Source of the DNA: a virus
Virus record (IMG/VR): IMGVR_UViG_3300008448_000052
Direction: 5' to 3' (one strand)
Length of the DNA stretch: 64,000 bases
Part shown: piece after piece, positions 23,165-50,952 of the stretch
How positions within the stretch are numbered: position 1 is the stretch's first letter
How the letters are laid out: every line of letters starts with the position of its first letter
Made by a program: the position numbers and the translations under genes
The notes under the pieces: generated by a model
Seen by the model: the letters and a program-made list of their open reading frames with translations, nothing else
Databases searched by the model: none
Told to the model about the DNA's origin: nothing

Positions 23165-23380
23165 TTAAGTTTTAACTGGTTTTGCTTTCGATGTCACTTC
23201 TTTTGTACCTAGAATGCTTTCTAAATACTTAATGTTGGCTTCGGCTGACTCTTTATATTTTTTTAAACTTAAAATGTCTCTTTCGGCTTTAGCGATGTTA
23301 TCATCATATGTTTGAATGTCGTCTTTAGTAGATGTAATGAGGTCTTCAAAGTGTCCTTTAAGGGATTCAGTAATTTTCAT
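23165..23380 (-). CDS. small coiled-coil protein
   Basis: 71-aa ORF. Confidence 0.35.
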   Translation of the reverse strand: MKITESLKGHFEDLITSTKDDIQTYDDNIAKAERDILSLKKYKESAEANIKYLESILGTKEVTSKAKPVKT

Positions 23381-25346: not shown

Positions 25347-26213
25347 CTACTTGTCAAGCAATTCTTTATAATTTTTAGATAAAGCATAGTTTTTAAATTG
25401 ATTTATGTCTAAAACTGTACTAAAAATTCCCATTGTATCGTATAATCGTTTTAAGAGTTGTTGGACATCATGGTTTGGACTGTTTTTGTTCCATTTTTTA
25501 CTTTGTTCTAATCCATATGAATATTCAGCTTTAATCTTAATTTTCTGAGTATGTTCTTTTTTAGTTTTCTTTGCCTTGTTTGGCTTAATTTTAATGATTG
25601 ACAAGTTTTTTGTTGGATAGAGGTAAATTTTATCACCTTGTTGAATGAGTTCCTCGTTCTTAATAGCATCCCAAACTGCAACCTCATTTGTTCTAATATC
25701 AACTTCTTTACCCTTTATGTAATAAACTTTCTTAGGCATTAGCATTTCTTTACTATTTGGTCTAAGTTCTGTTTTAAGAACATATCCTTTACAAGCTAGC
25801 ACTGGTTCGGTAATTGTTTTTTTAGCACACCATCTAGAAATGTCTTGAATGTTTACAGCTTCTTTTACATATTTTTCATAAATGTCAACAACAGTATTCT
25901 GCTTATCTTCTAATATGGCATCAATGATTTCTTTCATAAGAGAAGCTAAAGCTGGTTCTTTGGTAGATGATTTAAACGCTGAACCCTTAATTTTAATTTT
26001 ATTAGTACCATGCTCTTTTAAAATATAGTTTTTAGCTCGAACAACAATTACTGTATCAAAATATCCATCATGGTCAAACTGTATTTTTTCAGGAAATTGA
26101 TTGTTAAGTTCTTCTAAAAAAGCATCCTGTTCTTCTTCTGTCCAAAATTCACCATTTGGTTTTTGAACTAAAATTGCATCTGTATCAACATTAACTAATT
26201 TTAAATTATGCAT
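25347..26213 (-). CDS. family B DNA polymerase, C-terminal fragment (motif C + thumb)
   Basis: Begins MHNLKLVNVDTDAILV (DTD motif C) and contains a KxY-like VRAKNYIL; sits directly behind the HEG that follows the N-terminal fragment. Confidence 0.6.
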   Translation of the reverse strand: MHNLKLVNVDTDAILVQKPNGEFWTEEEQDAFLEELNNQFPEKIQFDHDGYFDTVIVVRAKNYILKEHGTNKIKIKGSAFKSSTKEPALASLMKEIIDAILEDKQNTVVDIYEKYVKEAVNIQDISRWCAKKTITEPVLACKGYVLKTELRPNSKEMLMPKKVYYIKGKEVDIRTNEVAVWDAIKNEELIQQGDKIYLYPTKNLSIIKIKPNKAKKTKKEHTQKIKIKAEYSYGLEQSKKWNKNSPNHDVQQLLKRLYDTMGIFSTVLDINQFKNYALSKNYKELLDK

Positions 26214-26877
26214 AATAAAAAACTATCCCATTTTTTGTTTTTTTAGTTCTACCTTTTAAAATATCACAAACAGAACTAACTGAAATTTTCCAATATTTAG
26301 CAGCATCAACTAAACTTTTAAAATTATTATTCATATTGTCTTTCAGTGGTTTTTTACTTTTTTCTATAAATGGTAGTAAATCTAAATGTCGCTTTAGTCT
26401 TTTTGAAATTTTAGACATTTTACTTTTAGTTTCATCAGTATGTTTAAATTTTTTATTTAATTTCAATTGTATCATTTTAATTTTAAATTCTTTTGTCCAT
26501 TTCTTACCATACATATAATGATCAGAACCTTTAATTATTTTTCTTTTTTTAAACTTATCCATTGTTTGTTTACTATGCTTTCGGCCATCCATTGGAGCAG
26601 ACGAGTGTAGACTAATATTATATTTAGGTTGTAAGTTGTTTAAATATAATTGTTCTATTTTTAATTTATTCTTTAGTAAACATTCTTCTATAACCTCAAA
26701 TTTAAAATTATCTTTACCATATTTTTTAAAAGCAATATTAAGTTTATAATTAGGATGTATTCCTTGTTCAGCTTTTCTAAAGTGTTCTTGTTTTCTTTTA
26801 GTCCAATTATTTGTTGAACCTATGTAAAAATCTTTAGTTATTATATTAATAATTTTATATATGTAACTCATTTTCAT
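26206..26877 (-). CDS. GIY-YIG homing endonuclease
   Basis: YIYKIINIITKDFYIGSTNNWTKRKQEH... GIY-YIG core plus basic NUMOD-like C-terminal DNA-binding region. Confidence 0.8.
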   Translation of the reverse strand: MKMSYIYKIINIITKDFYIGSTNNWTKRKQEHFRKAEQGIHPNYKLNIAFKKYGKDNFKFEVIEECLLKNKLKIEQLYLNNLQPKYNISLHSSAPMDGRKHSKQTMDKFKKRKIIKGSDHYMYGKKWTKEFKIKMIQLKLNKKFKHTDETKSKMSKISKRLKRHLDLLPFIEKSKKPLKDNMNNNFKSLVDAAKYWKISVSSVCDILKGRTKKTKNGIVFYYA

Positions 26878-28436: not shown

Positions 28437-29204
28437 TTATCTTTTTGGATAGGGTTTTATTAAGTGTTTAATATTAGTATACAACACATGTTTCCTTTTG
28501 CCAACAAAATAAAAGTATCTATGTTTACTTTTCTGTTTAACAAATTTAGCATTAGGGTATCTCTTTAGAATTTCATCTTTACGTTGAGAGCCAATTTTAG
28601 ACCTCATGGCTCTAGACCCGTACAATTTGCCATCTATGATGACACCAAATCGTTCCTTGTTTTTATTTTTAGGATTGCTGTCTCTCATTGAACCAACATA
28701 ATGAAAATTACAGGCTTGGTAAATGGTTCCCACTTCTCCAGCTAAGTGGTCGGTAGTGCAAGTTATCACCTCATATTGAGGCGGTAGCAGCTTTATTGCA
28801 CCCATTATAAGCTTACTGTTAGTGTTCTTAGGTGTCCAATGAAGACATACTCCTCTGGATAATAGCAGCATCTTACCAGTGTAACCATACTTATCCCAAA
28901 CGCCTAAATTCTCAGAATATTCAGGACCAAACACTACAACTCCACCACATAGTTCACCAAAGAAAATACCAAAGGCATATTTATTAACCGCTGGCATACA
29001 ACCAAGCCATTCATATTTCTCTATGATGGTTTTGGCTAATGACATGGTAATGGGTTTAACTATGGCATTCTTTAAAGTTAAGTCAGCATTTGTCCAGTAT
29101 GGGTTTTCCAATTCTTCTTTAGCGGTACGAACTCTTATGTCATACTGCCAAGCTGTACCGATGCTATCCTTATCTAAAGATTCTTCATACCTAGTTTTTG
29201 ACAT
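28437..29204 (-). CDS. hypothetical protein
   Basis: 255-aa ORF coupled between polB and the primase-helicase. Confidence 0.45.
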   Translation of the reverse strand: MSKTRYEESLDKDSIGTAWQYDIRVRTAKEELENPYWTNADLTLKNAIVKPITMSLAKTIIEKYEWLGCMPAVNKYAFGIFFGELCGGVVVFGPEYSENLGVWDKYGYTGKMLLLSRGVCLHWTPKNTNSKLIMGAIKLLPPQYEVITCTTDHLAGEVGTIYQACNFHYVGSMRDSNPKNKNKERFGVIIDGKLYGSRAMRSKIGSQRKDEILKRYPNAKFVKQKSKHRYFYFVGKRKHVLYTNIKHLIKPYPKR

Positions 29205-37901: not shown

Positions 37902-38710
37902 TATTTCTTATCTCCTGTGTTTTGTATCATTGAACCATGATAGTTGTAAACTTCGTCTAAACCGTTAATGTGTAAATGTTCTATACCCTTAGAATAAATA
38001 CCATGAGTTGTGTATAATGCAACCTTATTAGCTCCAGACTCTTTTAATAGTTTTGCAGCCGCAATGAATGTTGCGCCGCCATCACATAAATCGTCTACTA
38101 TAAGAATAGTTTTACCAGTTAAATCAATGGGAAACTTGTGTTTATATTTTAAACCTTCAATGGCACCAGTTTCTTGATTACGTTTCTTTTCTAGAATGAT
38201 AGGGGCTCCATAGTATTCTTCATCATATTGATAGCCACGAGCCGCCGCACCAGCATCAGGAAAACATACATAGTCAGTATTCGATTGTTTTAACACTTGT
38301 TGAATTCTAGGTGAAGGATTTATGTTAATAATGCTAGGCATTATAATGTCTTTAACAGCTTTTATATTGTGCATGTCCACTGTTGTAATGCTTTCAAATA
38401 CTTGACCCATAAGTCTTAAAAAAGGATATAGCGCAAACGTAGACGTGTTTGTTGTAGTTTTGTCTTGACGCGCATAGGGTAGTGTATCACAAAATAAATT
38501 TGCTTTTTTATTAGTTAAAGTAAGTAATAGGTGACCCAATTGATATAGGTGAAAAATTTCCGCTTCATTTTCAAATTTGTATTGAATTCTTACTTCATCT
38601 TTTTGTTTAGGCGCAGGGTTTAAATGCCATGCTTGTGAAGTGCCATCAGGAAATTTAGTAATTTCAAATTCAATAAGTTGTCCAGTCGTCTCGTTAGTAA
38701 TGATAATCAT
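37901..38710 (-). CDS. ribose-phosphate pyrophosphokinase (Prs)-like / Adps-like phosphoribosyltransferase-fold protein
   Basis: ILIVDDLCDGGATFIAAAKLL PRPP-binding loop of type I PRTases; 269 aa with an N-terminal Prs-like half. Confidence 0.6.
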   Translation of the reverse strand: MIIITNETTGQLIEFEITKFPDGTSQAWHLNPAPKQKDEVRIQYKFENEAEIFHLYQLGHLLLTLTNKKANLFCDTLPYARQDKTTTNTSTFALYPFLRLMGQVFESITTVDMHNIKAVKDIIMPSIININPSPRIQQVLKQSNTDYVCFPDAGAAARGYQYDEEYYGAPIILEKKRNQETGAIEGLKYKHKFPIDLTGKTILIVDDLCDGGATFIAAAKLLKESGANKVALYTTHGIYSKGIEHLHINGLDEVYNYHGSMIQNTGDKK

Positions 38711-38814
38711 ATAGGTCCTTTTTGTAAAATGTGGAAGTCTCTCCTCCCTGTCACCTTTGTTTTGTCATCCAAGGTCAACGAATAGGGCTCACTAATCCCT
38801 ACTGTGTTTTTTCT

Positions 38815-40224
38815 TTATTGTAATTTACTGTCTGTGTTTACGCCAATTGTGTTTAACACTGCTTTTCCTGCATCAGTTTGTGCAAAGCCTTCAACAAGGG
38901 CACCCAATTGCATGCCGCCTTTAGCTGTAAAAACATCACCTACAGATTTAATGCCACTTTGTGCATCTCCACCTGAAATAATCATTTTAACTTCGGCAGA
39001 AGATAGTGCTTTAGCTTGTTCAACGCCAACTGCTTGAGTAGCTTTAATTTGCTCAACTGTGATGAGATATTGTTGGTATTCTTTATTAGAACCAATTTCT
39101 TTAGCTAGTGTAACCTGAGCTGCTACTGGTGCCATTTCCATTGCTTTTTGAGCTTCGGCTCTTGCCATACCCATAGCTTTTTCAGCTTCGGCATTAGCTA
39201 CACCATTAACTTTAACACCTTCGGCTTCTGCTTGTTGTAATGCAAAGTTACCATCAGCGGCTCTCTTAGTCACTTCAAGATCGGCTTCTGCTTGTAATTT
39301 TTTAGTTTGTAAATTGGCTTGTGCTGTAATGACAGAAGTAACTTTAGCTTGTTCAGCGGCAATTTCAGCAACTTGTTTATTAATGTTTGCAGAGTTAACA
39401 TGTTCAACTTGTAAAATTTGCATTTCTTTTTCTTTAGTAACACGTTGTTGATCTTTAATGTTTTGTTGTGCAAATTGATTAGCTAATTCAACTTCGCGTT
39501 GAGCTTCAACTTTACGAAGACCAGTAACTTGTGTCGCTTGTTCTCTAGAAAGAGTAGCCTCGCGTTGAGCTTCAATTTCAGATACTTCTGCAACTTTTTT
39601 ATTATTGGCTACAGCTTGACGAGATTCCATTTCAATGAATGATTTTTTCTTTTCCATGATGTTAGCAATTACTTTAGAGTTAGCCGAGTCACGTAAATCC
39701 ATTAATTCAATGTTCTTAACTGTAGATACGCCCCAATTGGACAATTGCTCCCCAACTTCTTTAGTAAATGCATCACCAAACGAACTGCGACCTTGCATAA
39801 TTTCTTCAATTTCAGAAGATGCTAGCACTACACGAACTGCACCTTGAACAATGGCTTTTAGTTGAGAATGTAATTCATCAAAGCTAGATACACGTTGTGC
39901 GGCTACGTTTGATTCTGTTATGCGGAAAAAGGCTTTAACGTCCACTCTAAATGGTAAGCGTCCTTTGTCGTATGCTTCATAGTCAGTTAAGTCTAAGTCA
40001 AATACGCTAGTGGGTAGAGTAATTTTTGTTATACCAATAACTGGCAAAAATGAAGGCCATTCGTAATACGAGTTACCATTTCCAGTATCTTTACCATACG
40101 ATGTTGTACTGCCAGCAGACTGGACAATGTGTACTTCGTTTGTAGAAACCACTCGACGGAAAAATAGTGGCAGAAAAAATCCTGCTAATAATGCGACAAA
40201 TGCTAAAATAGATGCAATAATCAT
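38815..40224 (-). CDS. SPFH/band-7 flotillin-like membrane protein
   Basis: N-terminal TM, SPFH-like core (…RVDVKAFFRITE…IMQGRSSFGDAF…), long A/E/Q-rich coiled coil like flotillin EA repeats. Confidence 0.65.
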   Translation of the reverse strand: MIIASILAFVALLAGFFLPLFFRRVVSTNEVHIVQSAGSTTSYGKDTGNGNSYYEWPSFLPVIGITKITLPTSVFDLDLTDYEAYDKGRLPFRVDVKAFFRITESNVAAQRVSSFDELHSQLKAIVQGAVRVVLASSEIEEIMQGRSSFGDAFTKEVGEQLSNWGVSTVKNIELMDLRDSANSKVIANIMEKKKSFIEMESRQAVANNKKVAEVSEIEAQREATLSREQATQVTGLRKVEAQREVELANQFAQQNIKDQQRVTKEKEMQILQVEHVNSANINKQVAEIAAEQAKVTSVITAQANLQTKKLQAEADLEVTKRAADGNFALQQAEAEGVKVNGVANAEAEKAMGMARAEAQKAMEMAPVAAQVTLAKEIGSNKEYQQYLITVEQIKATQAVGVEQAKALSSAEVKMIISGGDAQSGIKSVGDVFTAKGGMQLGALVEGFAQTDAGKAVLNTIGVNTDSKLQ

Positions 40225-40232
40225 ATGATTCC

Positions 40233-40538
40233 TTAGTAATTAAACTTTTTAGTTTTGGTTGAAGTTTTAAGAGACTTTGTTAAGAAAAACCCTTTAAAAG
40301 TTTTGTTTTCTCTAACAAGTTTGCGAGATAGTAATGCAATGAAGTCGTTGTTTACTTTAAATTTACTACCTCTAGTTGTAAAATCGTGTTCCCAGCGAAT
40401 AGCGTTAATGATGGCCCATGCTGAATAGCGGCGTCTTCCGTTTTTATACAGCACCGTAGCAAATTTTTTAAACTTGTTATACACTGTGGGGTTTTCCTTT
40501 AAATAGTTGTTAAAGGCTCGTCTAGTTGTTGAAGTCAT
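40233..40538 (-). CDS. hypothetical basic protein
   Basis: 101-aa ORF. Confidence 0.4.
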   Translation of the reverse strand: MTSTTRRAFNNYLKENPTVYNKFKKFATVLYKNGRRRYSAWAIINAIRWEHDFTTRGSKFKVNNDFIALLSRKLVRENKTFKGFFLTKSLKTSTKTKKFNY

Positions 40539-40587
40539 GCTTTTCCTTATGTTTTGGTTATGTTTTTAATTGTACTATAAATCTAGT

Positions 40588-40815
40588 TTAATATAATGAT
40601 TCTAACTTGTCAAGCTCTTTTACATCAATGAGTCCAGTGTCATCTAACTCAATGTCGTACATGTTGCCAGTTTTAATAACCATGCTTTCTATCATGCATT
40701 TATTTAGATATAATAGTGTATCATCATCTATAGGCCCACGAGGTAAAGCATCGTTTCTACCAATAGACTCGTTCCACTCTTTACTAAACTCCAAAAGATT
40801 CATTTTCGACATCAT
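40588..40815 (-). CDS. hypothetical protein
   Basis: 75-aa ORF. Confidence 0.35.
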   Translation of the reverse strand: MMSKMNLLEFSKEWNESIGRNDALPRGPIDDDTLLYLNKCMIESMVIKTGNMYDIELDDTGLIDVKELDKLESLY

Positions 40816-41266
40816 CAGCTCCCTTATCTATATTTTGTAAGTTGTTTAAAGCTTCAATGACTTCATCATGTGAAGGTTTTTGTTTTAGATTAAGACTAGC
40901 TACTATGTTTGGGTGAGCAGCTTTCCAATTTTCAAGCTCAACTAGTGCTTCAACTAGTGCTTGCATAGCTTTATCAAACATATGTTTACCATAATCAATT
41001 TCTCGACTTAAAACCTCTTTGTACATATCGAGTAATTCGTCTTGCATTTTAATACGGCGTTCAAAAATACTTACCGTCATAGTTAAAAGTATAATTATTG
41101 TACAAATTAAAACTAAAAGCAGTCCAAAGAAAATATCATTAGTAAAAGTTAAATATATACCAATGAACGCCCATATGGTAAACACATAATTAACAGGAGC
41201 ACTTTTGTAATGAATTTTCATTTCATCAAAAAGTTCTTTCATTGTTGGTTGATTATTTTCTGACAT
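40784..41266 (-). CDS. membrane protein (2 TM) with C-terminal coiled coil
   Basis: 160 aa; hydrophobic FTIWAFIGIYLTF and LLLVLICTIIILL helices. Confidence 0.45.
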   Translation of the reverse strand: MSENNQPTMKELFDEMKIHYKSAPVNYVFTIWAFIGIYLTFTNDIFFGLLLVLICTIIILLTMTVSIFERRIKMQDELLDMYKEVLSREIDYGKHMFDKAMQALVEALVELENWKAAHPNIVASLNLKQKPSHDEVIEALNNLQNIDKGADDVENESFGV

Positions 41267-41519
41267 TGTTTCCCCCGATGCGTTCTGTTAAAGTTGTTTT
41301 ACCACTTTTATAAGTGCTTATAGTTTCTGAACAATTAGTAAAGTAGTGATAACGATAGTCACTAAATCTATATACTTTACATCCATCTTTTTGAAAAAGA
41401 AGAACTACGTCAAAATTGTCGGCTGGATTAGCAGTTTGCACTGACACCGCCTGTCCAGATTTAGAACAAGTAAATCCTGTCAACATAAGCGATGCTGTTA
41501 CTAATAGTATTAATTTCAT
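41253..41519 (-). CDS. small secreted protein (signal peptide)
   Basis: 88 aa; N-terminal MKLILLVTASLMLTGFTC signal-like sequence. Confidence 0.4.
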   Translation of the reverse strand: MKLILLVTASLMLTGFTCSKSGQAVSVQTANPADNFDVVLLFQKDGCKVYRFSDYRYHYFTNCSETISTYKSGKTTLTERIGGNNVRK

Positions 41520-43879
41520 AATTCATTTCCTTTTGGTCTAATTAATTTTACTACAAAACCCGTTAATTTGTCAAACTCTTTTTTGTGTATTAAAAACAAA
41601 GATGGACCATATTCGCTGTATTCGTCTAAAAACTGTTGCTTAAATATTCCTAACCCTTTAGGTATGTTTTCTGGGTGGATTTGTTCAGCATACTCTGCCG
41701 CTTTTTTATACCATCCGTAAGCATTTGCCGTAGCACTAGATGCTTTATGAATAAGTTCTTTTTCTATTGCTTCAACTTCTGGTAATATTTCTTCTGGGAT
41801 AAGGGCTTTATATTCAGAAGGTAGGACAAACTTTCCATTAGGTAGTTCTGCCATTTTTTCCCAAATAGAAATGGGACTGATGCTGTTTAGAATTTTCTGC
41901 ATTTTACAATAGGCAGCACCTTTGTCCTTAATGCGAAATCCAGAAGGAACATAACGACGAACTACACCTTCAAAGTTTACAGGCCACGTTTGTTGTAACT
42001 CTTTAATTTCTTCCGCTGTATAGTTATAGGTTTTACGAAGCGGGAAACCAAGAATGTCGGCAAATTCTTTTAATAGGTCTTCATCTAAGTCTTTACCAGT
42101 AACCTTATTTATGGCACATAATAGGACAAGAGTTTTATCATTACCATAGTCAACAACAAGTCTAGCACCATCATTAAATCTGTTTTCTGGATATATAATC
42201 TCAAAACAAGGTGTATAACGCTTTAACGTGCCCAGCATTGTATTATATTTCTCAGAGCCAGCCTCAACCTTAGCTAGGGCTTCTTGTAGCATGGTTGTGC
42301 CAATTTTAGCTTGGTCAGATTGAAAAGAACCACGAGTAGCTATTTTGTATTTATCGTCAACTGGGTCTAAATATAAAATACCCAAAGAACCATCTAGCTT
42401 TTCCTCTACTACAAAAGTTTCACCTACTGGTGGTTGTGGTAGGGTTTTGTTTTCAAGCTCGAACTCATTAAAAAATTTGGACAAGGGTCTAGCAACAGTG
42501 TCGCCCGTTTCCTTATTTAGAATGAGTCCACGACATTCAATGGTATACTTATTCCAATAGCGTTCATATGTACATTTTTCGCTATAGTTAAAAAGTACCA
42601 ATGGTCCACTTTCTTGTTTACGAAGATAGCCTTGCTCTACTAATTTGTCGTATGTTTCAAATTTATTCATATGGTCCCATTCATCGTCTTTAGGTTTTTT
42701 TGGAACATTGCTATCTATTTCGGTTACAATGGCTATTTCTTTTTTAGGACCGTGGATTGTTGCTATTCGGTTTTTTTCACCAAAACAAGTTCCACCATCA
42801 AGTCCATAAATTGTTTGTTCTTTATCATTAACAATAATGGCATTTTTAATGTCTTCAATAACTATGTGTCCAAAAAATAATTTATACTGCGGAAATTTAC
42901 GTTTCTTGTGAAACCAATAGCCAGCCGAAGCTTCTCTAGTAAAAGTTCCCATTTTGTCATCAAAATAACGAGCATACAAACAAAATTCTCTAGTGGTGTT
43001 TTCTGGATGTACGTTTGGATTAAACCCAGCATGGGTGAAATAGTTATCGTGTATTTTTATAATGTAAGGAAAATCCATCATTTTACAATATAGTTCATGC
43101 TTTTTTTCACCCTCTAACATGTCAGATTTAGTTAGTTGGTCAATGGTGCCTTGAATGCTGTCAGTATGAACCTTATTGCCTCTTAGCCAACGTTTGAGCT
43201 TGTGTCCATGATTTGAGTCAGTGACATAAACATTGGGTGTATGTAATACAAACTCAAAAACCTTGTCACATTGTTCGCCTCTATCGTTTAAGTCCCCAAG
43301 AATGAGAAGCATATCGTTTCCAGCAACATATGAAACTAATTCTAAAGTACGAACCATTTCATCATAGCAAGAGTGAGGGTCGGCTAGCACTATGACTCTT
43401 TTAAAGTCATTAGAATAATTAGTTAAGTCAAGAACCTTTAGTCCTGACTTATGTTCTTGCATCGGTATCCAAATGTCACATTCGTTTTTAATACCTTCAA
43501 ATTCTTCTTTATCAAAGTACATGTTTAATGCTTTATATGCGGTCTCAGCATCGCCAGCTTCTATTGTTGGGTGGTTTCTGCGCTTCATTATTCTATCAAA
43601 AGCCACTGCATACGGAACATGGAAATATCTATATTCAATGACATACCCAGCGGCTTTAGCGGGTTCAACATATCGCATACGTTGTTCTTTAGTAAAACCA
43701 ATGCGGTCAACAATGATGTCGTGTTTTTGTTTTAATAAACTATTAAACTCTCGTAAATGACCTTCTTTTCCTTGTCTATCTTGGTTGACAATAAAATAGT
43801 TCTCAGCTTGAGTAGCTGCCCAAGTGCTTTTACCTGAACCTTGGCTTCCTATTGTTAGTATTAATTTAGGTTTAGTCAT
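41516..43879 (-). CDS. tripartite polynucleotide kinase-phosphatase-ligase (Pnkp-like RNA repair enzyme)
   Basis: N-terminal P-loop GSQGSGKST (5'-kinase); central calcineurin-type phosphoesterase ADPH / GDLNDRG / SNHGH; C-terminal nucleotidyltransferase motif I EEKLDGSLG (ligase-like). Confidence 0.65.
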   Translation of the reverse strand: MTKPKLILTIGSQGSGKSTWAATQAENYFIVNQDRQGKEGHLREFNSLLKQKHDIIVDRIGFTKEQRMRYVEPAKAAGYVIEYRYFHVPYAVAFDRIMKRRNHPTIEAGDAETAYKALNMYFDKEEFEGIKNECDIWIPMQEHKSGLKVLDLTNYSNDFKRVIVLADPHSCYDEMVRTLELVSYVAGNDMLLILGDLNDRGEQCDKVFEFVLHTPNVYVTDSNHGHKLKRWLRGNKVHTDSIQGTIDQLTKSDMLEGEKKHELYCKMMDFPYIIKIHDNYFTHAGFNPNVHPENTTREFCLYARYFDDKMGTFTREASAGYWFHKKRKFPQYKLFFGHIVIEDIKNAIIVNDKEQTIYGLDGGTCFGEKNRIATIHGPKKEIAIVTEIDSNVPKKPKDDEWDHMNKFETYDKLVEQGYLRKQESGPLVLFNYSEKCTYERYWNKYTIECRGLILNKETGDTVARPLSKFFNEFELENKTLPQPPVGETFVVEEKLDGSLGILYLDPVDDKYKIATRGSFQSDQAKIGTTMLQEALAKVEAGSEKYNTMLGTLKRYTPCFEIIYPENRFNDGARLVVDYGNDKTLVLLCAINKVTGKDLDEDLLKEFADILGFPLRKTYNYTAEEIKELQQTWPVNFEGVVRRYVPSGFRIKDKGAAYCKMQKILNSISPISIWEKMAELPNGKFVLPSEYKALIPEEILPEVEAIEKELIHKASSATANAYGWYKKAAEYAEQIHPENIPKGLGIFKQQFLDEYSEYGPSLFLIHKKEFDKLTGFVVKLIRPKGNEL

Positions 43880-44405
43880 TCTTTATCTCGCTTAAGTATA
43901 TTTTAGTATTTCTACGTAATGTATTTTTTCTACATAGAACATAGGCAGACATTATTGGATTATTTATAAATTCCAAAGGATTCAATTTTTCTTCTACATA
44001 GTTATGCACCCATGTGTCTTTATAAACAAAAGCCCAAGTGCCCTCATGTTTAGAAGTTCTTTGCCCTAACAATAATATGTGTTTTTCACTAATGGGTCGT
44101 TCTATATATTCTTCATTAGTCTTTAATGCCGTAACCGTAACTTCTTTTACTACCCAACCATGTTTTGATAGCATTTTTTTCATTGCTCTATCTGACCAAG
44201 TTTTAGCAGTTTTAGGTAACGACTTAGATATAGTTTCAGGGGGTAGGTGTAACAAGGCTGAAAGAGCATATGTACCACACGAGCCTCTTACTTTTTTTTC
44301 GTCAACATGAGTCGGTTTAAACATATAATAGTAGGGTTCTTCATACATGTTAAACATGAATGAACTGGTTTGTTTATTATATTTGTTTGCTGAACCAAAT
44401 TTCAT
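43872..44405 (-). CDS. hypothetical protein (start at internal ATG with ATGA overlap onto HNH stop)
   Basis: The track ORF begins at 44474, but Met24 at 44405 forms an ATGA junction with the stop of the upstream HNH gene. Confidence 0.4.
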   Translation of the reverse strand: MKFGSANKYNKQTSSFMFNMYEEPYYYMFKPTHVDEKKVRGSCGTYALSALLHLPPETISKSLPKTAKTWSDRAMKKMLSKHGWVVKEVTVTALKTNEEYIERPISEKHILLLGQRTSKHEGTWAFVYKDTWVHNYVEEKLNPLEFINNPIMSAYVLCRKNTLRRNTKIYLSEIKND

Positions 44406-44929
44406 AACAAGCTCCCCATGTTTCTTTTTACACCTTTTAATCCAAAACCTTCCGAGTGATGCTGCACTTTCCAATGAGCACTAGAACCTTTTTTAACATT
44501 ACAAGCAGTGCAACATGGTGTTAAATTTCTAATGTTATCAGAGCCACCTAGTGCCAATGGTACAATGTGATCTAATTCTGGAAATGTTTTTCTAAAATCA
44601 AACGTAATGCCACAATAGCCACAAAATAATTTACCGTTTAAGTGAAGTAGCACCATAGACTTGCGTAATTTCCATTTATTCTTATAATGTAGTCCACCAT
44701 CACTTTTTACGGGCTGATTTATATATTTTTTATATAATTCATCCTGAGTAAAGAAAATTTTATTACCTAAACTAAAATAGACATTTTTACTAGTTTTGAA
44801 TATAAAACTTACTATAAGCAATTTTACTTGTAGAATATAATTTAAGAAAAAATACTTTCCACTATTATAATAAAGACTAACAATACTAATAATATCATAA
44901 AATACCTGTTTCTTTTGTGTTGTATCCAT
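44402..44929 (-). CDS. HNH endonuclease
   Basis: CGYCG...LDHIVPLALGGSDNIRNLTPCCTACNVKK HNH motif. Confidence 0.65.
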   Translation of the reverse strand: MDTTQKKQVFYDIISIVSLYYNSGKYFFLNYILQVKLLIVSFIFKTSKNVYFSLGNKIFFTQDELYKKYINQPVKSDGGLHYKNKWKLRKSMVLLHLNGKLFCGYCGITFDFRKTFPELDHIVPLALGGSDNIRNLTPCCTACNVKKGSSAHWKVQHHSEGFGLKGVKRNMGSLL

Positions 44930-45602: not shown

Positions 45603-45731
45603 AAGGGTTCCGTTTCTTTAGTAAGATTTAAGTAGTTCAGCGATGCGTTTTTTTGCAATTGCTATTAATGTATCTATGTCAAAAGAAGGCATCAAGGGAG
45701 CATTTAGCCCCCCTGAGCTTTGACGATTATT

Positions 45732-47219
45732 TCATAAGTTTTCTAAAATTTTCTCAACATTATCGTTTGCTTTTTTAATAAGTAAAACATTAGCGTGACT
45801 AGATAATTGTTCGTTAACTAATCCAATGAAGCCTTTAGCTAACATAGCTTGTGAGCTGTCATCAATTTCTTTAGCTTTAGGATTCATCAACTCTAGGTGT
45901 TTTTTCATTGCTGCTGCTGAGTAAACAATGTCTTTAGAAGTCAATGACAACTTTTCACCTTTACCTAAGCGACCAATGGCAAACAACTTAGAGCGTTCCG
46001 CTACTTCACGAATTACTGCTGGTATTTGTCCTGCCAACTCATCACCCACTGCTGTTAAGTCTTCATTTTCTGAAATGAGACCATCAGCATAAACTCTAAT
46101 GAGCTTTTGGGCTGCTGCGCTGTCAGGAGGATTAACCGTGATGATGGCATCAAGACGGCCGGGGCGAAGCATGGCACGTTCAATTTTCTCAATGTGATTT
46201 GTCGTAAAAATACATAGCACTTCTTGGCCTTTTGAGTCGATGCCGTCGATGTTGTTTAATACGTCATTCACTTTTGTGCTACGACCATCAGAAGATTTAA
46301 CCGCATTCTCAATGTCTTCACCAAATACTACTGCTGGTGAATATTGACGAGCAAAAATCATTGCTTCTTTAATGCCTTCAATGCGATCAAGATAAATGTA
46401 TGTCCAACCATTTTTAACCGCTTTAAGGGCTGTAACAGACGCCGTTAATGTTTTACCAGTGCCGTAAGGACCTTCTAATAATACAGTGCGCTTTAACGGG
46501 ATACCAGCGGCTCTACATTCTTCGGTTCTTTCAACTGGTGTGAACAAATTAGTTTGCACTTCTGCTCTCACTTGGTCAGAGAAAGTTAATTCATTTTCAT
46601 TAATGAGCGACAAGTCCATAAAACGAGGAGCTGACATAAAATCAATTTGACCTTCAAGATTTGTTGTCAATTTAATAGCTTGACCTTTATAAAGAGAATT
46701 TTTTGCTGAATAGGCTCTTAATGAATTAGCAATAAATTTAATTTCAGCTTCATACTTTTTCTTAACTACGCCTCTTAATATAAAAATTGGCTTACCGTTT
46801 TTAAGAGCAGCACCAGTGCTTAGTTTTCCTTGCACATTAGGCACTTGGAAATCTCCCCAAATAACTTGAGCAGTTTTACCAAAGGCCACTTCAAGGCTTA
46901 CCATAATCGGAGGATTGGGTCCAAAGAAACCTTGTGTTGGCACCGCATTTACCCAACCATAAATGTCTTTTAACACTTGCATTAAGAAATAGGCACCTTC
47001 CAAAGGCCATGCGCTGTCAATTTCTTCATTGATGGCTACGTCCATTTCTTTTTGCATCTTAATGCGATGCAAGTTATCAATGGCTTCGTCTTCTGTCATT
47101 TCACGAGGGTCGTTTGGCAGCACAATGGCCTTCCCTTGTTTCAATACAGTGATGTCTTTGTTTTTAAAAGCATCCTTGAATTCGTCTTTAGTTCCGTTTG
47201 TTGTTTGTACTTGGTTCAT
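45732..47219 (-). CDS. AAA+ ATPase (classic clade) with ~240-aa N-terminal domain; last gene of Ubl operon
   Basis: Walker A GPYGTGKT, Walker B VVFGEDIE, sensor-2 RPGRLD; starts 2 nt after the E1 stop. Confidence 0.7.
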   Translation of the reverse strand: MNQVQTTNGTKDEFKDAFKNKDITVLKQGKAIVLPNDPREMTEDEAIDNLHRIKMQKEMDVAINEEIDSAWPLEGAYFLMQVLKDIYGWVNAVPTQGFFGPNPPIMVSLEVAFGKTAQVIWGDFQVPNVQGKLSTGAALKNGKPIFILRGVVKKKYEAEIKFIANSLRAYSAKNSLYKGQAIKLTTNLEGQIDFMSAPRFMDLSLINENELTFSDQVRAEVQTNLFTPVERTEECRAAGIPLKRTVLLEGPYGTGKTLTASVTALKAVKNGWTYIYLDRIEGIKEAMIFARQYSPAVVFGEDIENAVKSSDGRSTKVNDVLNNIDGIDSKGQEVLCIFTTNHIEKIERAMLRPGRLDAIITVNPPDSAAAQKLIRVYADGLISENEDLTAVGDELAGQIPAVIREVAERSKLFAIGRLGKGEKLSLTSKDIVYSAAAMKKHLELMNPKAKEIDDSSQAMLAKGFIGLVNEQLSSHANVLLIKKANDNVEKILENL

Positions 47220-47221
47220 CC

Positions 47222-47956
47222 TTAAGCCTCTTTCTCGGAAACTAGTTCCGTTTGTTTTTTGTCTGTAAACATAACCATAGCATTTTGTGACAGCTTGACA
47301 TCCCAGTGTATGAGCTTGGGATATTCTTCGCTCATTAACACATTCTTCACTGTTTTAACAATGAGACATGCTGCACCAAACGCTGTGTAAATGGTGCTTT
47401 TCGCTGTGCAAGGGGTCTGGACACCTTCTTCATTAGTGTGTAATGACTTTCTATAGCCCGTTGTATTAGATAGAGTCTGTGGGTCTAGTACAGCATACTG
47501 ACTATACTTTTCAGCACCCATGCGAGGGTCAACTAATAATTCAGCGCCATGTTGTGAAGCCATTTCTAAACAAAACTTTCTTACTTCCATGTCATCAGCA
47601 CAACAAATGAGATAGGAACCTCTTAATAGTCTACGCATTTCTTCTTCTGGTATGGTGTCATCAAATAGTGCTGGTATGGCGGTTATTTCTATTTCAGCAA
47701 AGTCCTGAATGATGGCCTTTAATGCCTCAACTTTTGAACTACCTATGTCTTTCTTTCTGTAAATTTGATTATTCATGTTTTCAATGGCAACAACGTCAGC
47801 ATCGAAAACTGTAATGTTACTTACTCCCATTTTGGACAATGCAAATGTTGTGAATGAGCCTGTAGCCCCAGCGCCAACAATGACCACTGGTTTGTCTAAT
47901 ACCATATAATTTATGATGTCAGACTGTCTAATGAGGTGGCTGTTAGCGTTAAACAT
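47222..47956 (-). CDS. E1-like (ThiF/MoeB-family) ubiquitin-like activating enzyme
   Basis: VVIVGAGATGSFTTFALSKMGVSNITVFDADVVAIENMNNQIY matches the ThiF GxGxxG...DxDxVExSNLNRQ block; start taken at the internal ATG (47956), 8-nt overlap with JAB stop and GAGGTGG SD; track ORF extends to 48007. Confidence 0.75.
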   Translation of the reverse strand: MFNANSHLIRQSDIINYMVLDKPVVIVGAGATGSFTTFALSKMGVSNITVFDADVVAIENMNNQIYRKKDIGSSKVEALKAIIQDFAEIEITAIPALFDDTIPEEEMRRLLRGSYLICCADDMEVRKFCLEMASQHGAELLVDPRMGAEKYSQYAVLDPQTLSNTTGYRKSLHTNEEGVQTPCTAKSTIYTAFGAACLIVKTVKNVLMSEEYPKLIHWDVKLSQNAMVMFTDKKQTELVSEKEA

Positions 47957-48893
47957 CGCTACCACCTCTATTTGAACGAGAAAAGCGTTCGTGCATATCC
48001 GCACCATCTAATTCGTCAGGTTCAAACATGCCCGCTGCTTCTAACATAGTTAATTCATTTTCCTTATCGTTTAATTCTTCTTCACCAGCTTTATTTAAGA
48101 ATTTTACATATGACTCAGAAGACATTCGTAAAGCTTCTGCTTCGGCGGCAATGCCTTTACCTAGTAGACCATTAATCCACTTAGTAGGGGTAAGCTGTCC
48201 AGCTAATTCTAGTTGTTCATTATCGTCATGAAAAAGTGAAACAGGACGTTTGCTGCTCTTATCTACCCAACATTTTAAGTCATAGTCCCACTCTTGGTTT
48301 GATCTATCAATGATAGAGCTTACTCCCGATGTTTTAGTTGTGTTAGATTTAGCTAATGCTCTTGAGTGTTCAGTAATTTTTTCATCATAGGATGTGTCCC
48401 AATCTGCTGGGTGTAAATAGTATGTGTCCACGTCATCAATGAAAGACGTTGCATCGCCAAACAATGCATGCTTAGTTTTAAAACAAACTGCCGACTTCAT
48501 TTCTTCGCGTTTGTTAAAAACTGTGGCTATGATGTAGCCATTGCCACCATATTTAAGAATGGTGTCCTTATCGGTACCAGACCAAAATACACCCATGTTA
48601 GCATGACTATGCCACCAAAGTTTTGTCGAACCTTCTCCAGATGCCTTGTGTTGCTCTATCATAAGCTTACCTAAATCGGCTTCATCGGTTTCAGTGCTAG
48701 TTGGTCCGTTTACTTGCTTCACTAGAAATACGTCTGTCACTGTAAATACTTTATTTTTCTTGTCATACTCAACATTACCAAAACCACTTATTTCATAAGG
48801 TGATTTTTTTACCCAATGCATAATTTTTTGATAAACTTCTAAAGGATAATGAATTTGAATGCCAGTGTTTTCTACTAAGTTTTTTTTGCTCAT
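47949..48893 (-). CDS. JAB/MPN (JAMM) metalloprotease with C-terminal extension
   Basis: HSHANMGVFWSGTD is an exact HxHx7Sx2D JAMM motif; Glu upstream; AAAGGA SD. Confidence 0.75.
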   Translation of the reverse strand: MSKKNLVENTGIQIHYPLEVYQKIMHWVKKSPYEISGFGNVEYDKKNKVFTVTDVFLVKQVNGPTSTETDEADLGKLMIEQHKASGEGSTKLWWHSHANMGVFWSGTDKDTILKYGGNGYIIATVFNKREEMKSAVCFKTKHALFGDATSFIDDVDTYYLHPADWDTSYDEKITEHSRALAKSNTTKTSGVSSIIDRSNQEWDYDLKCWVDKSSKRPVSLFHDDNEQLELAGQLTPTKWINGLLGKGIAAEAEALRMSSESYVKFLNKAGEEELNDKENELTMLEAAGMFEPDELDGADMHERFSRSNRGGSDV

Positions 48894-48909
48894 GTTATGT
48901 CCTTTTTAT

Positions 48910-50445
48910 TTATGTTAGTTTAATTACGTTGTCGTTATTCATAGAACCTTCTGCAAATAAAGCTTCGGCACTAATGAAAGATTTTTGAGTAACGTCCAGC
49001 GGTAAATAACGAATTTTAGTTAATGGGTGTTCATAAACTTCAACTATGGTAATCCCATTAGTAGACGGTTTTAATATAAAATTTCTAACACTTTTAACAA
49101 TTTGTGGTAAATAATTAGTCTTTATAATGTACCCAAGGTTAGTGCTAACTAATTCATTAGCATCATCTACATATATAGCTCCACTAGCTTTTTCTTTAGA
49201 AAAATCATGTAAAGATGCATAAGGTGTTCCACCATATGTTTGTAATAGAACTTTAAGTAAATCAAATGCGACACTTGGTTGCATAGTGTTCATTGCTGCT
49301 GAATAGGCATTAACAACATTTCCCCAACATACGTTACCATTGTGGTCAACATGGGGGTGAAAGCATCCATTAACCGATGTATTATTTTTATAAGGTAACA
49401 CTACAATTTTATTAGCAAAAGGACAATAACGAACAATGTAAGAACCAAAATTCATTTTCTTTTCAGTAGGGCTACCGCCGTCACGAGTTAAAATGACATC
49501 TTTGGTAGTAAATGCTAAATTAAAACTACCTCTTTCATTATTATCAAATTTACTTATCTCAGTGTTAAAAACAAAAAATTTACCCGCTTGAATTTTTTCA
49601 ATTTCACTATGGAAATTTACTCCACCACTGATAATATTTTCAATTTTAGAGCGTTCATTAGCAGCTCTTTCTAAAAATATGTTTGCTTCGCTCATTTTAG
49701 ACGCAGCACTAGATAAATTATTTTGTATAGTACGTTTTACTTCTGTAACAAATGAAGAATTCTCACTAGGTTTTAATGACGTTAGTAAAGATTTTTGTTC
49801 AGCGGTTAAATTAAGTGAAGGTGCTGAATGTTTTTCTTTATTTGCTTCATAATAATCAAAAAAAGTTCTAGTGATGTCTCTTATTTTGGTGCTAGTGAGA
49901 CAAGTTTTGACTAAGTCTGCTGGTAAATCTTGAATGGTTATGCCAGCATTAGTGCATAATGAAATGAGGTGTTCTTCTGAGGCTTTTTCTATTTGATAAG
50001 AAACAACATTGGGTTCAACTGTAGCATTTTGCATTGCTATGCGTTCGGTGATGGCACGTCTTACTTCATCATTAGTCGCGTTATGCGTTTCACATTTAGC
50101 ATCACTGTTTAAAACATCTGAAATAATTTCTAAATGCATTTTACTAATGTCTAAAATTCTACCAGCATCATAATTTCTAGAAGAAATGACTGAAACAGTA
50201 TATTTAGGACTACCCACTGTTTGTGAAATAATACGAACTAAATCGTTTTTATAAAGATAGCTGTCGTTAGCGCCATCTTTTTTAATTCTAGCTAATAGGT
50301 TTTCTGGATTTTCCCAAATATTCTTTTTTGGTGTTGCTTTTTTTCTAGCCTTGGGAGGGGCAACAGATGCAGATAAAGATGCTAATGGTGCTGTAGAAAC
50401 TGCTATAGTTTGTGCAAAACCTCTATATGATGGGGACGATGACAT
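48910..50445 (-). CDS. large protein with C-terminal UBC-like E2 domain (putative)
   Basis: CPFANKIVVLPYKNN...CFHPHVDHNGNVCWGNV...VAFDLLKVLLQ parallels the UBC core (FPxxYPFxPPxV...HPNIxxxGxICLDIL...); AAGGAG SD; 16 nt upstream of JAB. Confidence 0.5.
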   Translation of the reverse strand: MSSSPSYRGFAQTIAVSTAPLASLSASVAPPKARKKATPKKNIWENPENLLARIKKDGANDSYLYKNDLVRIISQTVGSPKYTVSVISSRNYDAGRILDISKMHLEIISDVLNSDAKCETHNATNDEVRRAITERIAMQNATVEPNVVSYQIEKASEEHLISLCTNAGITIQDLPADLVKTCLTSTKIRDITRTFFDYYEANKEKHSAPSLNLTAEQKSLLTSLKPSENSSFVTEVKRTIQNNLSSAASKMSEANIFLERAANERSKIENIISGGVNFHSEIEKIQAGKFFVFNTEISKFDNNERGSFNLAFTTKDVILTRDGGSPTEKKMNFGSYIVRYCPFANKIVVLPYKNNTSVNGCFHPHVDHNGNVCWGNVVNAYSAAMNTMQPSVAFDLLKVLLQTYGGTPYASLHDFSKEKASGAIYVDDANELVSTNLGYIIKTNYLPQIVKSVRNFILKPSTNGITIVEVYEHPLTKIRYLPLDVTQKSFISAEALFAEGSMNNDNVIKLT

Positions 50446-50566
50446 ACACGCTCCTTGTGTTTGTTTAGTTTATTCTTTACATAATTCTAGCGAAAAACAC
50501 AGGGCTTACACGTTACGTTGCCTATGTTTTTCAAACAACTATGCGCCTACGGGAGGCTACGTCTGT

Positions 50567-50848
50567 TTAGTTACCTTTTACTTTTTCAGTGAATGTAACA
50601 TACGAACCATGTTCCAATTGGACTGAATCGTTGTCTTCTGGTGTACCATCAATGGTAGCTTGCTTGCTTGACGCATTTAACTTGGCCTTTAATTGACCTA
50701 AAGTTAATGGTAATGCATACTCAACAAACGCTCCACCTAATTCAGCAGCTTTAACTACTTCTAATTTAGGTTTTGCTGGTGCTGCGGCCACAGATTTTTT
50801 TGGTGCCGATTTTTTTGACGATGTTTTCTTTTTTGCTGCTTTAGACAT
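50567..50848 (-). CDS. ubiquitin-like beta-grasp protein (ThiS/MoaD-like) with Lys/Ala-rich N-tail, C-terminus ...KVKGN
   Basis: C-terminal IDGTPEDNDSVQLEHGSYVTFTEKVKGN parallels the MoaD/ThiS ...L.DGD.V.F.PPV.GG pattern; AAGGAG SD; first gene of operon. Confidence 0.45.
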   Translation of the reverse strand: MSKAAKKKTSSKKSAPKKSVAAAPAKPKLEVVKAAELGGAFVEYALPLTLGQLKAKLNASSKQATIDGTPEDNDSVQLEHGSYVTFTEKVKGN

Positions 50849-50952
50849 AATGTCTCCTTTTGTTTTGGGTTTCTTCTTTGGTTAACGTTGATAATCAGTT
50901 TATATTAGTGCTAATGTGTTGTCAAGTATTATTTTATTTAGTTTTTTCATTT

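Follow-up and report, generated by a model that had tools for sequence, protein, structure and literature searches.

Gene layout of the locus

The window, the whole 64,000-nt stretch of phage DNA that was analysed (IMG/VR record IMGVR_UViG_3300008448_000052), contains five successive minus-strand genes, and all five ORFs were found where a preliminary description of this DNA had placed them. Read along the minus strand from the promoter-like site to the terminator-like hairpin, the features are the following.

50897..50925, minus strand: promoter-like site, TTGACA-17-TAAACT, upstream of the Ubl gene (consensus scan, 10/12 matches)
50567..50848, minus strand: pro-Ubl, the ubiquitin-like precursor, 93 aa (ORF)
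50446..50566, minus strand: Ubl-E2 spacer of 121 nt, with an A-run/hairpin/U-run element and the E2 Shine-Dalgarno (sequence)
48910..50445, minus strand: multidomain E2-like protein, 511 aa (ORF)
49327..49359, minus strand: E2 active-site segment HPHVDHNGNVC, residues 363-373 (motif and UBC alignments)
47949..48893, minus strand: JAMM/MPN+ metallopeptidase (JAB), 314 aa (ORF)
47222..47956, minus strand: minimal single-domain ThiF/MoeB-type E1, 244 aa (ORF and homologue alignment)
45732..47219, minus strand: classical-clade AAA ATPase, 495 aa, phrog_10440 (PDB and PHROGs matches)
45692..45716, minus strand: terminator-like hairpin and T-run directly 3' of the AAA+ stop codon (consensus scan)

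The genes had been described as tightly coupled, with gaps or overlaps of 2-16 nt. This is correct for three junctions, namely a 16-nt gap between E2 and JAB, an 8-nt overlap between JAB and E1 and a 2-nt gap between E1 and the AAA+ gene, and incorrect for the first, where the spacer between Ubl and E2 measures 121 nt. Shine-Dalgarno sites had been reported upstream of three starts; they are indeed present, and we found Shine-Dalgarno-like sequences at all five (AAGGAG, AAGGAG, AAAGGA, GAGGTGG and AAGAGG). The mechanical ORF of the E1 extends to 48007, and its start at 47956 is backed by an alignment of five homologues and by public gene calls of 244 aa. Because the regional total of promoter-like sites was not above the shuffled expectation, only the position of the site upstream of the Ubl gene is suggestive. 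The fold of the hairpin in the Ubl-E2 spacer was not significant (z = -1.2), and that this element is an attenuator is only a guess. The terminator-like hairpin has a 10-bp stem with 6 GC pairs.

The proteins of the cassette

All five domain assignments of the preliminary description stood. The 93-aa protein, which had been read as beta-grasp, has that fold: a disordered Lys/Ala-rich tail (residues 1-30, with 10 Lys) precedes a beta-grasp domain at residues 31-92, and the C-terminus reads KVKG92-N93. K91 and G92 are invariant in the family, whose members carry from 0 to 22 or more tail residues beyond the conserved Gly motif. Because the window protein ends in G-N and not in the family's usual G-G, we can only infer its cleavage site. 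The Ubl had no match in PADLOC, NCBIfam or Pfam, libraries in which the presence of Bil models was not confirmed.

The 511-aa protein consists of an SH3/KOW-like beta domain (residues ~50-107), a helical region (123-287), a UBC-like core (~291-420) and a C-terminal beta domain (424-510). A UBC fold with an HPN-like HPH...GNVC segment had been proposed for it, and the alpha/beta fold of UBC enzymes was borne out. Aligned by hhalign to UBE2D2, the protein gave a probability of 88.6% (E 2.6e-6) and placed Cys373 opposite Cys85, and a PDB profile search aligned its HPH motif to UBC enzymes. The HPH-x7-C spacing equals that of HPN-x7-Cys, and LLQTY(N/G)xxPY follows downstream, comparable to the LLxxPNxxxP-like helix of UBC. 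C373 and G375 are present in 58/58 sequences, P364 in 56/58 and H363 in 54/58; Cys373 is the predicted thioester cysteine. The score against Pfam UQ_con was 12.7 bits, under the gathering cut-off of 27, and a Foldseek search with the complete model failed to recover UBC. Neither the window protein (E<=1) nor any of 60 family members (E<=0.01) matched Prok-E2_A-E or Prok_Ub. The family comprises 442 cluster representatives (50% identity clusters) and matched nothing in Pfam, PHROGs, NCBIfam or PADLOC, with Bil models not confirmed among those of PADLOC, NCBIfam and Pfam. The family is large and unannotated.

The JAB protein has a catalytic domain at residues ~9-150, followed by a conserved C-terminal extension. 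It had been called a JAMM protease with an exact HxHx7Sx2D motif, and it is an intact JAMM peptidase: EISGF lies at residues 34-38 and HSHANMGVFWSGTD at 95-108, so that the zinc site E...HxHx7Sx2D is complete, and E34, H95, H97, S105 and D108 are kept in 58-59 of 59 sequences. Its best PDB match was the Rpn11-like protein 6fjv (7e-5), and it also matched Prok-JAB (0.0025) and the PADLOC JAB model (5e-4).

The E1 matched Pfam ThiF at 1.1e-21 (77.6 bits, cut-off 28.1; residues 40-227 of the 261-aa ORF) and MoeB in the PDB at 3.4e-8. It lacks UFD and CYS domains, and all its homologues are 235-271 aa long. It scored far under the ThiF/MoeB equivalog cut-offs. Against PRTRC_ThiF, the model of the PRTRC system, it reached 34 bits (cut-off 144.75). 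Near-invariant positions in 75 sequences are R10 (the N-terminal RQ Arg), the glycines of the Rossmann GxGxxG (G28/G30/G33; GAGATG at residues 28-33 in the window protein), D52 (the ribose Asp), N60, Q64, K75, D121 (the Mg Asp) and C183, the last in a loop reading PCTAKSTIY. The preliminary description was right about a ThiF-type E1 with GxGxxG. It misread the second motif block as DxDxVExSNLNRQ, however; the block reads DADVVAIENMNNQ, and the canonical NLxRQ Arg is therefore absent. The window protein has Asn63 there, and its 75 relatives have T, C, S, P or N, never Arg. Because this arginine is missing family-wide, adenylation competence is assumed.

Co-inheritance of four genes and their possible roles

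The genes for the E2-like protein, JAB and E1 follow one another on one strand, with the E2-like gene directly before JAB, in all 30 phage-like loci that have upstream DNA, and most of these also have a Ubl gene upstream. The order Ubl-E2-JAB-E1 is repeated in ~35 loci of Planctomycetota metagenome-assembled genomes (MAGs), on integrated elements. When the genes of all loci were clustered, these four families were the only ones conserved. Four families in one order at more than 60 independent loci is far beyond chance, and Ubl-E2-JAB-E1 is a genuine co-inherited cassette on phages and integrated elements.

Many viral contigs of 35-180 kb carry the cassette within arrays of early/replication genes on the same strand. 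In the window, neighbouring genes encode a Pnkp/RNA ligase, a NAMPT, a PRPP-synthetase-like protein and a Band_7 protein, and IMG/VR loci have a primase-helicase and an SNF2 helicase beside the cassette. The Planctomycetota cassettes are multi-copy and adjoin genes for a tyrosine integrase and a large serine recombinase as well as a GP88-family gene; copies beside integrases and recombinases would also be compatible with use by the carrying element for defence or exclusion. As for the window phage having been called lytic, no integrase turned up when 25 ORFs of the window, the largest and a minority of the small ones, were scanned with Pfam; the contig itself runs on for ~9 kb beyond the window.

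In many phage contigs the genes around the cassette are of early, replication and counter-defence type. From this we infer that the phage uses it in its own infection cycle, modifying host or phage proteins; gene context suggests a pro-viral role. We favour, with a probability of roughly 0.6, a four-gene ubiquitin-like conjugation cassette of tailed phages and mobile elements that serves the phage's own infection cycle and is independent of the AAA+ ATPase. By homology, the JAMM peptidase would trim the 93-aa precursor to expose the invariant Gly92. The E1, presumably homodimeric, would adenylate Gly92, and its loop Cys183 would accept the Ubl, which would then move to Cys373 in the UBC-fold domain of the 511-aa protein. 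Because no E3 is present, the variable N- and C-terminal domains of the latter would pick the targets, to whose lysines the Ubl would be joined, and the JAMM peptidase might also undo the modification. The roles put forward in the preliminary description (modification of virion proteins, a decoy, a tag for an unfoldase) are speculative.

Defence genes are often carried by phages, and the cassette could instead act in Bil-like defence or superinfection exclusion on mobile elements. It would then tag competing phages' proteins, for instance those of the tail, and thereby protect the carrier phage or prophage and its host. Its parts and gene order match those of Bil, a proven antiphage system whose target is a tail protein of the phage (PMC10557695; 10.1101/2023.09.04.556158), and the multi-copy Planctomycetota cassettes with their adjoining integrase, recombinase and GP88-family genes also speak for this. 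We nevertheless consider it possible but rather doubtful, since the viral copies lie in early/replication arrays and not in bacterial defence islands, CapH/CapP or WYL regulator families are absent among the recurrent neighbours, the E1 architecture is unlike BilD, and neither the E2 nor the Ubl matched a PADLOC model, Bil models there not being confirmed.

The preliminary description had also counted the AAA+ gene as part of a complete five-gene operon. Its product is, as had been stated, a classic-clade AAA+ ATPase, with best PDB matches to Afg2/Cdc48/VAT (3e-29), the motifs GPYGTGKT and RPGR (RPGRLD), a Walker A and a second region of homology with Arg fingers. If all five genes formed one tag-and-unfold pathway, the ATPase would unfold or extract Ubl-marked proteins, possibly feeding a phage ClpP-like protease. 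Members of the Cdc48/Afg2/PAN clade, in which its PDB and NCBIfam matches place it, process ubiquitin- or SAMP-tagged substrates. The 2-nt gap to the E1 gene, the ATPase gene's own Shine-Dalgarno, and the promoter-like site before the Ubl gene and terminator-like hairpin after the AAA+ gene point the same way, and the ATPase is probably co-transcribed with the cassette. A ClpP-like protease with an aligned catalytic triad is encoded at 23377-24042, and the adjacency recurs in two further loci, L004 and L005.

We find this pathway unlikely, however. Adjacency of the AAA+ gene to the cassette is confined to the closest relatives of the window, and one of these (L003) keeps an intact cassette beside a remnant of the last 70 aa of the ATPase. 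In 81 viral loci that carry AAA+ relatives, no cassette gene lay within 6 kb, no homologue in N4-like phages lies near one, and ~26 other phage-like cassette loci have no AAA ATPase. The match to phrog_10440 (3e-127) covers residues 23-492; because the whole protein, N-domain included, is common to cassette-free phages, the N-domain is not Ubl-specific. Its Walker B is ED, not DE, family-wide, and the ClpP-like gene is a head maturation protease in PHROGs. The search for five-gene synteny thus returned a recurrent four-gene order, with the AAA+ gene in the window's immediate clade only: the ATPase is a local neighbour, outside the conserved cassette. It would be a widespread, independent phage gene of Cdc48-like type that landed downstream of the cassette in this lineage, and any AAA+-Ubl coupling would be lineage-specific.

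Finally, the Ubl and E1 have their nearest sequence and fold matches among ThiS/ThiF/MoeB sulfur carriers, but a sulfur-carrier or small-molecule adenylation pathway (thiolating a nucleoside, cofactor or phage DNA, for example, with JAB only maturing the carrier) is very improbable, since the conserved neighbours include neither a rhodanese nor a cysteine desulfurase nor a ThiG/MoaE/TtuA-type partner and the four families alone recur, the E1 falls far under the equivalog cut-offs, and the cassette always contains a protein of UBC fold whose cysteine is invariant, a component that such pathways lack (PMC10557695).

Comparison with known systems

Like ThiS-ThiF/MoaD-MoeB, SAMP-UbaA and TtuB-TtuC, the cassette pairs a small beta-grasp carrier ending in a C-terminal Gly with a minimal E1-like adenylyltransferase; those systems have no E2 and need sulfur-transfer partners, whereas the cassette has a UBC-fold protein and a JAB as obligatory partners. 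Type II CBASS (Cap2/Cap3) differs in that its Cap2 fuses E2 with E1 and conjugates a CD-NTase, not a Ubl, whereas the cassette E2 and E1 are separate; no CD-NTase or effector accompanies the cassette, and no nucleotidyltransferase is among its recurrent neighbours. The Ub-E1-E2-Rpn11 system of Caldiarchaeum supplies the best solved relative of the JAB (6fjv), and the active-site spacing of the E2 is that of eukaryotic UBC. Unlike systems of this type, the cassette has neither a RING E3 nor a multidomain Uba1-like E1, and the likeness is only at the level of fold and motif.

The closest parallels are bacterial, and the cassette order matches both Bil and type I Bub, as had been suggested. Bil consists of four separate genes, Ubl-E2-JAB-E1, JAB cuts from its Ubl precursor the short tail that lies behind a conserved Gly, and its E2 is presumed to select targets because there is no E3 (PMC10557695, PMC11601596). 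The cassette likewise has four separate genes in this order and a Ubl with a conserved C-terminal Gly and a short, predicted removable tail. It differs in its E1, a single ThiF domain of 244 aa without the BilD architecture, in its 511-aa multidomain E2, whose HPH-x7-C resembles eukaryotic UBC where BilB is of the CEHH type, and in its location on viral contigs and integrated elements.

Type I Bub (6E.1/DUF6527) has the order Ubl, E2, JAB, E1, a JAB that matures the Ubl, and a minimal homodimer-type E1 like ThiF/UBA5 (PMC11601596). The cassette shares the module order and the minimal E1, but in Bub the Ubl and E2 form one fusion and JAB and E1 another, whereas the cassette ORFs are separate. 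Bub also adds the DUF6527 (BubE) serine protease; the cassette has no conserved fifth gene, and DUF6527 had no Pfam match among the five window proteins. Lastly, Bub uses oxyester intermediates and an E1 without a catalytic cysteine, whereas the cassette keeps both putative catalytic cysteines, C183 of the E1 (73/75) and C373 of the E2 (58/58).

Gene layout and distribution of the cassette

The window is a phage: a major head protein is encoded at 714-1949, and genes for primase-helicase, DNA polymerase and NAMPT are also present. Its proteins recur on metagenome contigs of freshwater type, the longest of which measures 72.9 kb. Neither the operon nor bases 1-25000 had a megablast match in a phage collection, and tblastn of E2 and JAB against phage records also gave none. 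The five minus-strand open reading frames (ORFs) that had been described in this region are all present, together with three candidate regulatory features.

Genes and candidate signals of the cassette region
50925-50897, minus strand: promoter-like site TTGACA-17-TAAACT, upstream of the Ubl gene
50567-50848, minus strand: Ubl, 93 aa
50446-50566, minus strand: 121-nt Ubl-E2 spacer, the sole long spacer in the gene set, with an A-run/hairpin/U-run element
48910-50445, minus strand: E2-like protein, 511 aa
47949-48893, minus strand: JAB, 314 aa
47222-47956, minus strand: E1, 244 aa
45732-47219, minus strand: AAA+ ATPase, 495 aa
45716-45692, minus strand: terminator-like hairpin, directly past the AAA+ stop

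The mechanical E1 reading frame reaches 48007; the start at 47956, which gives the 244-aa protein, matches five homologues and the genes called publicly on metagenome contigs of identical sequence. Each of the five starts is preceded by a Shine-Dalgarno-like sequence. E2 and JAB are separated by 16 nt, JAB and E1 overlap by 8 nt and E1 and the AAA+ gene are 2 nt apart, but the tight coupling (2-16 nt) claimed in the preliminary description does not extend to the Ubl-E2 junction, where the gap is 121 nt. Since promoter and terminator consensus sites show no regional enrichment overall, it is the position alone of the promoter-like and terminator-like sites that is suggestive. The A-run/hairpin/U-run element in the spacer might reduce read-through into the enzyme genes. 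We dropped the claim of an attenuator there because the spacer folds no better than shuffled sequence (z = -1.2).

We ran family profiles over the surroundings of five E2 relatives and over 26 IMG/VR loci that the E1 alignment had retrieved. The order E2-like, JAB, E1, on one strand, was found in 30 of 30 loci with upstream DNA, and nearly all of these have a small Ubl gene upstream. All-against-all clustering returned Ubl, E2, JAB and E1 as the only families common to the loci; apart from these, the genes that recur nearby in viral loci serve replication and encode a D5-like primase-helicase and an SNF2 helicase. When one genome per species was scanned, two further phage-like contigs binned into MAGs were added, along with about 45 cassette loci in Planctomycetota MAGs. 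The latter show the same gene order; a genome often has several of them, and some lie on megabase contigs. The Planctomycetota copies are probably integrated elements, because a tyrosine integrase and a large serine recombinase are encoded among their neighbours, as are an SNF2 helicase and a GP88-family phage protein. Contigs carrying several Ubl-E2-JAB-E1 copies per genome (L042-L089; for example JASGHE01 and CAVXOB01) come from Gemmatales, Phycisphaerae and Pirellulales. We conclude that a phage-borne four-gene Ubl system is real and has no existing annotation.

Partial likenesses were seen in better-known phages. In crAss001 (MH675552.1; L037 1283-5693, gp79-gp76), gp77, annotated as 'metalloprotease' (HSHNNMATFFSGTD), matches the JAB profile at 4e-11, and gp76, annotated as 'ThiF', matches the E1 profile at 2e-29. 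The upstream gp78 contains a GYMHSHV...C segment and aligns as an E2 in hhalign with a probability of only 13%, while gp79 has a Ubl-looking N-terminus and ends in KKIKSG, without profile support as a Ubl. crAss-like phages may carry the cassette in a highly diverged form, and the full-cassette reading in crAss001 is a lead only. Related E1s are found in Flavobacterium FpV4 and in Xanthomonas jumbo phages.

Conserved residues and predicted folds

A word-indexed homologue search with E2 returned the query alone; its relatives came from an exhaustive search (E<=1e-3), which yielded 442 cluster representatives (50% identity clusters) with a conserved region corresponding to residues 155-420. G334, H363, C373 and G375 are invariant in 60 aligned members (consensus GYxHPHVxxxGxVCWGNA...LQTYNxxSPY), none of which matched a relevant Pfam family, and C373 and G375 are invariant across 58 loci. 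In a PDB profile search this segment aligned to the HPN...Cys and LLxxPNxxSP elements of UBC proteins with E about 0.1, and hhalign against UBE2D2 gave a probability of 88.6% (E 2.6e-6) and placed Cys373 on Cys85. The AF2 model (pLDDT 81.8) comprises an SH3/KOW-like domain, a long helical region, a core of beta-sheet plus helices at about 291-420 and a C-terminal beta domain.

The closest solved structure to JAB is a Caldiarchaeum Rpn11-like protein (7e-5), and the JAB residues E34, H95, H97, S105 and D108 are kept in 58-59 of 59 sequences. E1 matches ThiF (1.1e-21) and MoeB (3.4e-8), and R10, GxGxxG, D52, N60, Q64, K75, D121 and C183 (in PCTAKSTIY) are near-invariant (n=75). C183 presumably sits at the position of ThiF Cys184 and MoeB Cys187, ahead of the last conserved helix. 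The Arg of the NLxRQ motif, which the preliminary description had included in its motif reading, is never Arg in this family (the window and 75 relatives), its place being taken by T, C, S, P or N. The Arg-less motif is a hallmark of the E1 family and a caveat for its predicted activity. R67, four residues past that position, is Arg in the phage clade of E1 and unconserved in the Planctomycetota copies.

Ubl matched nothing in profile libraries, and an alignment of the upstream small ORFs from related loci retrieved 116 relatives, a few of them labelled ThiS/PF02597. In its AF2 model (pLDDT 73), residues 1-30 are a disordered tail rich in Lys and Ala (10 Lys), followed by a domain of beta-beta-alpha-beta-beta-beta topology. 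The alignment of relatives shows no variation at K91 and G92, VKGG is present in 82 of the 116, with extra residues after it in most, and C-termini in the window's clade read KVKG-N, KVKG-A or KVKG-NKENQV. Bil Ubl precursors likewise have a conserved Gly and a tail, and JAB cuts after that Gly (PMC10557695); by analogy, the window's Ubl would be cleaved after Gly92. The N-terminal extension (50759-50848, minus strand), Lys/Ala/Pro-rich, histone-tail-like and predicted to be disordered, is limited to the window and the related loci L003, L004 and L006, other members beginning at the beta-grasp domain. It could bind nucleic acid or offer lysines to which chains are attached.

Possible roles and the adjoining AAA+ ATPase

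The best-supported reading is that the four proteins would form a minimal cascade in which E1 and E2 conjugate Ubl and the JAMM protein serves as maturase/deconjugase. Conservation of folds and active sites and co-inheritance are the observed parts of this mechanism; catalysis at every step, the position of the cut in Ubl, thioester formation on E1 and the selection of targets through the variable end domains of E2 would follow Bil and eukaryotic precedent. We tentatively propose, with a probability of about 0.45, that the cassette is phage-native and pro-viral, tagging host or phage proteins during infection and uncoupled from the AAA+ ATPase. The family so defined comprises hundreds of 50%-identity clusters, including a group of ~40-47 kb contigs, some jumbo-sized contigs and possibly crAss001 gp79 to gp76. 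The gene context favours use of the cassette in the phage's own cycle: the cassette lies in early/replication arrays, and downstream of it come genes for Pnkp/RNA ligase, NAMPT, a PRPP-synthetase-like protein and a Band_7 protein.

Other minus-strand genes of the window
41516-43879, minus strand: 787-aa kinase-phosphatase-RNA ligase fusion (Pnkp/RNA ligase)
38815-40224, minus strand: SPFH/Band_7 protein
37901-38710, minus strand: PRPP-synthetase-like protein
36672-37244, minus strand: metallophosphoesterase
35110-36651, minus strand: NAMPT
23377-24042, minus strand: free-standing ClpP-like serine protease (Pfam CLP_protease 2e-29; PDB ClpP 9e-25; Ser/His/Asp aligned)

The run at 35110-43879 is of a counter-defence or metabolic type. 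Elsewhere on the minus strand (28437-29204, 26206-26877, 22386-22859 and 44402-44929) are a Mom-like DNA modification gene, which adjoins polymerase and helicase genes, and several homing-type endonucleases: a GIY-YIG/NUMOD3 gene that shares bases with the end of the DNA polymerase ORF, and two of the HNH type.

A role in defence or exclusion is a less likely alternative to use in the phage's own cycle; the integrated Planctomycetota copies would be compatible with it.

A third reading couples the cassette, in the window's lineage, to the Cdc48-like ATPase and perhaps to the ClpP-like protease, as a virus-encoded tag-and-unfold/degrade pathway. The AAA+ protein is of the classical AAA clade (Afg2/Cdc48/VAT 3e-29; NCBIfam PAN/Cdc48 matches), with a Walker A motif, an RPGRLD second region of homology and an aromatic residue at the pore-loop position. 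Over residues 23-492 it falls into phrog_10440, with 40-44% identity to N4-like phage proteins, and throughout that widespread phage family (alignment A5), N4-like members included, Walker B has an invariant E-D for the usual D-E (VVFGEDIE). Cassette genes are absent from the N4-like phage loci that carry homologues, and none of 81 further IMG/VR loci with AAA+ relatives had E1, E2, JAB or Ubl within 6 kb. Among cassette loci besides the window, the AAA+ gene adjoins only in its close relatives L004 and L005. In a third close relative, L003 (6659-6856), just residues 426-495 (70 aa) remain, directly after the E1 of an intact cassette; this deletion scar shows that the gene was ancestrally adjacent in the window's clade and is dispensable. 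An iterative search of phage-like loci found no other AAA. Because of these cassette-free loci, the limited adjacency, the L003 remnant and the lack of an AAA in other phage-like loci, the AAA+ gene is not part of the conserved unit. It is probably co-transcribed with the cassette in the window, and a functional tie is unsupported. The preliminary description had counted it as a member of the system, which the 81 loci and the remnant contradict: the phage-borne Ubl-E2-JAB-E1 order recurs across loci and stands, but the ATPase is not co-inherited and is only a lineage-specific neighbour.

Among the window's neighbouring genes we found no conserved partner for AAA+. A 494-aa AAA ATPase lying 5-6 kb upstream in five Planctomycetota loci was rejected as its counterpart, having the AAA core alone in common, and so was the 'IGL' tripeptide in the AAA+ tail as a ClpP-docking loop, which sits in a 4-residue gap of the L003 remnant. 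The ClpP-like gene lies within a nuclease/replication block, overlapping the gene of an SbcD-like exonuclease (24027-25283); the major head gene is ~21 kb away and on the opposite strand. The PHROGs label of the ClpP-like gene is head maturation protease. We regard the coupled pathway as improbable. A sulfur-carrier pathway is unlikely, since the cassette has no linked sulfur enzymes and its Cys-bearing UBC protein is obligatory.

Significance and comparison with known systems

To our knowledge, all characterised prokaryotic Ubl conjugation systems (Bil, Bub, CBASS Cap2) have been described as bacterial antiphage weapons. A complete, co-inherited cassette carried by phages would place the same chemistry on the opposite side of the conflict, and, if its targets are host defence proteins, would represent a new class of counter-defence. 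The very small E1 and the E2 with eukaryotic active-site spacing would offer a compact model for the evolution of E1-E2-Ubl systems from ThiF/ThiS-type enzymes, and four families now annotated as 'hypothetical' could enter phage and defence annotation pipelines. No account of an E1-E2-JAB-Ubl cassette encoded by a phage turned up in the literature covered, in which subscription journals are poorly represented and an earlier catalogue mention is possible; the 2006 Iyer catalogue names phages solely for a tail-assembly Ubl/JAB pair.

Prok-E2, Prok_Ub and PRTRC models did not match the cassette. Its gene order is identical to that of Bil, Ubl-E2-DUB-E1 (PMC10557695), but the Bil E1 has an IAD-AAD-CYS architecture whereas the cassette E1 is a single 244-aa domain. 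The order also parallels that of type I Bub, in which Ubl is fused to E2 and JAB to E1 (PMC11601596), while the cassette genes are unfused; Bub moreover uses oxyester chemistry and has a DUF6527 partner, whereas the cassette has invariant cysteines and no such partner. Cap2 is characterised by a fusion and a CD-NTase, neither of which the cassette has. Altogether, these comparisons indicate that the cassette is predicted to work like Bil, Bub and Cap2, yet departs from each in a defining feature.
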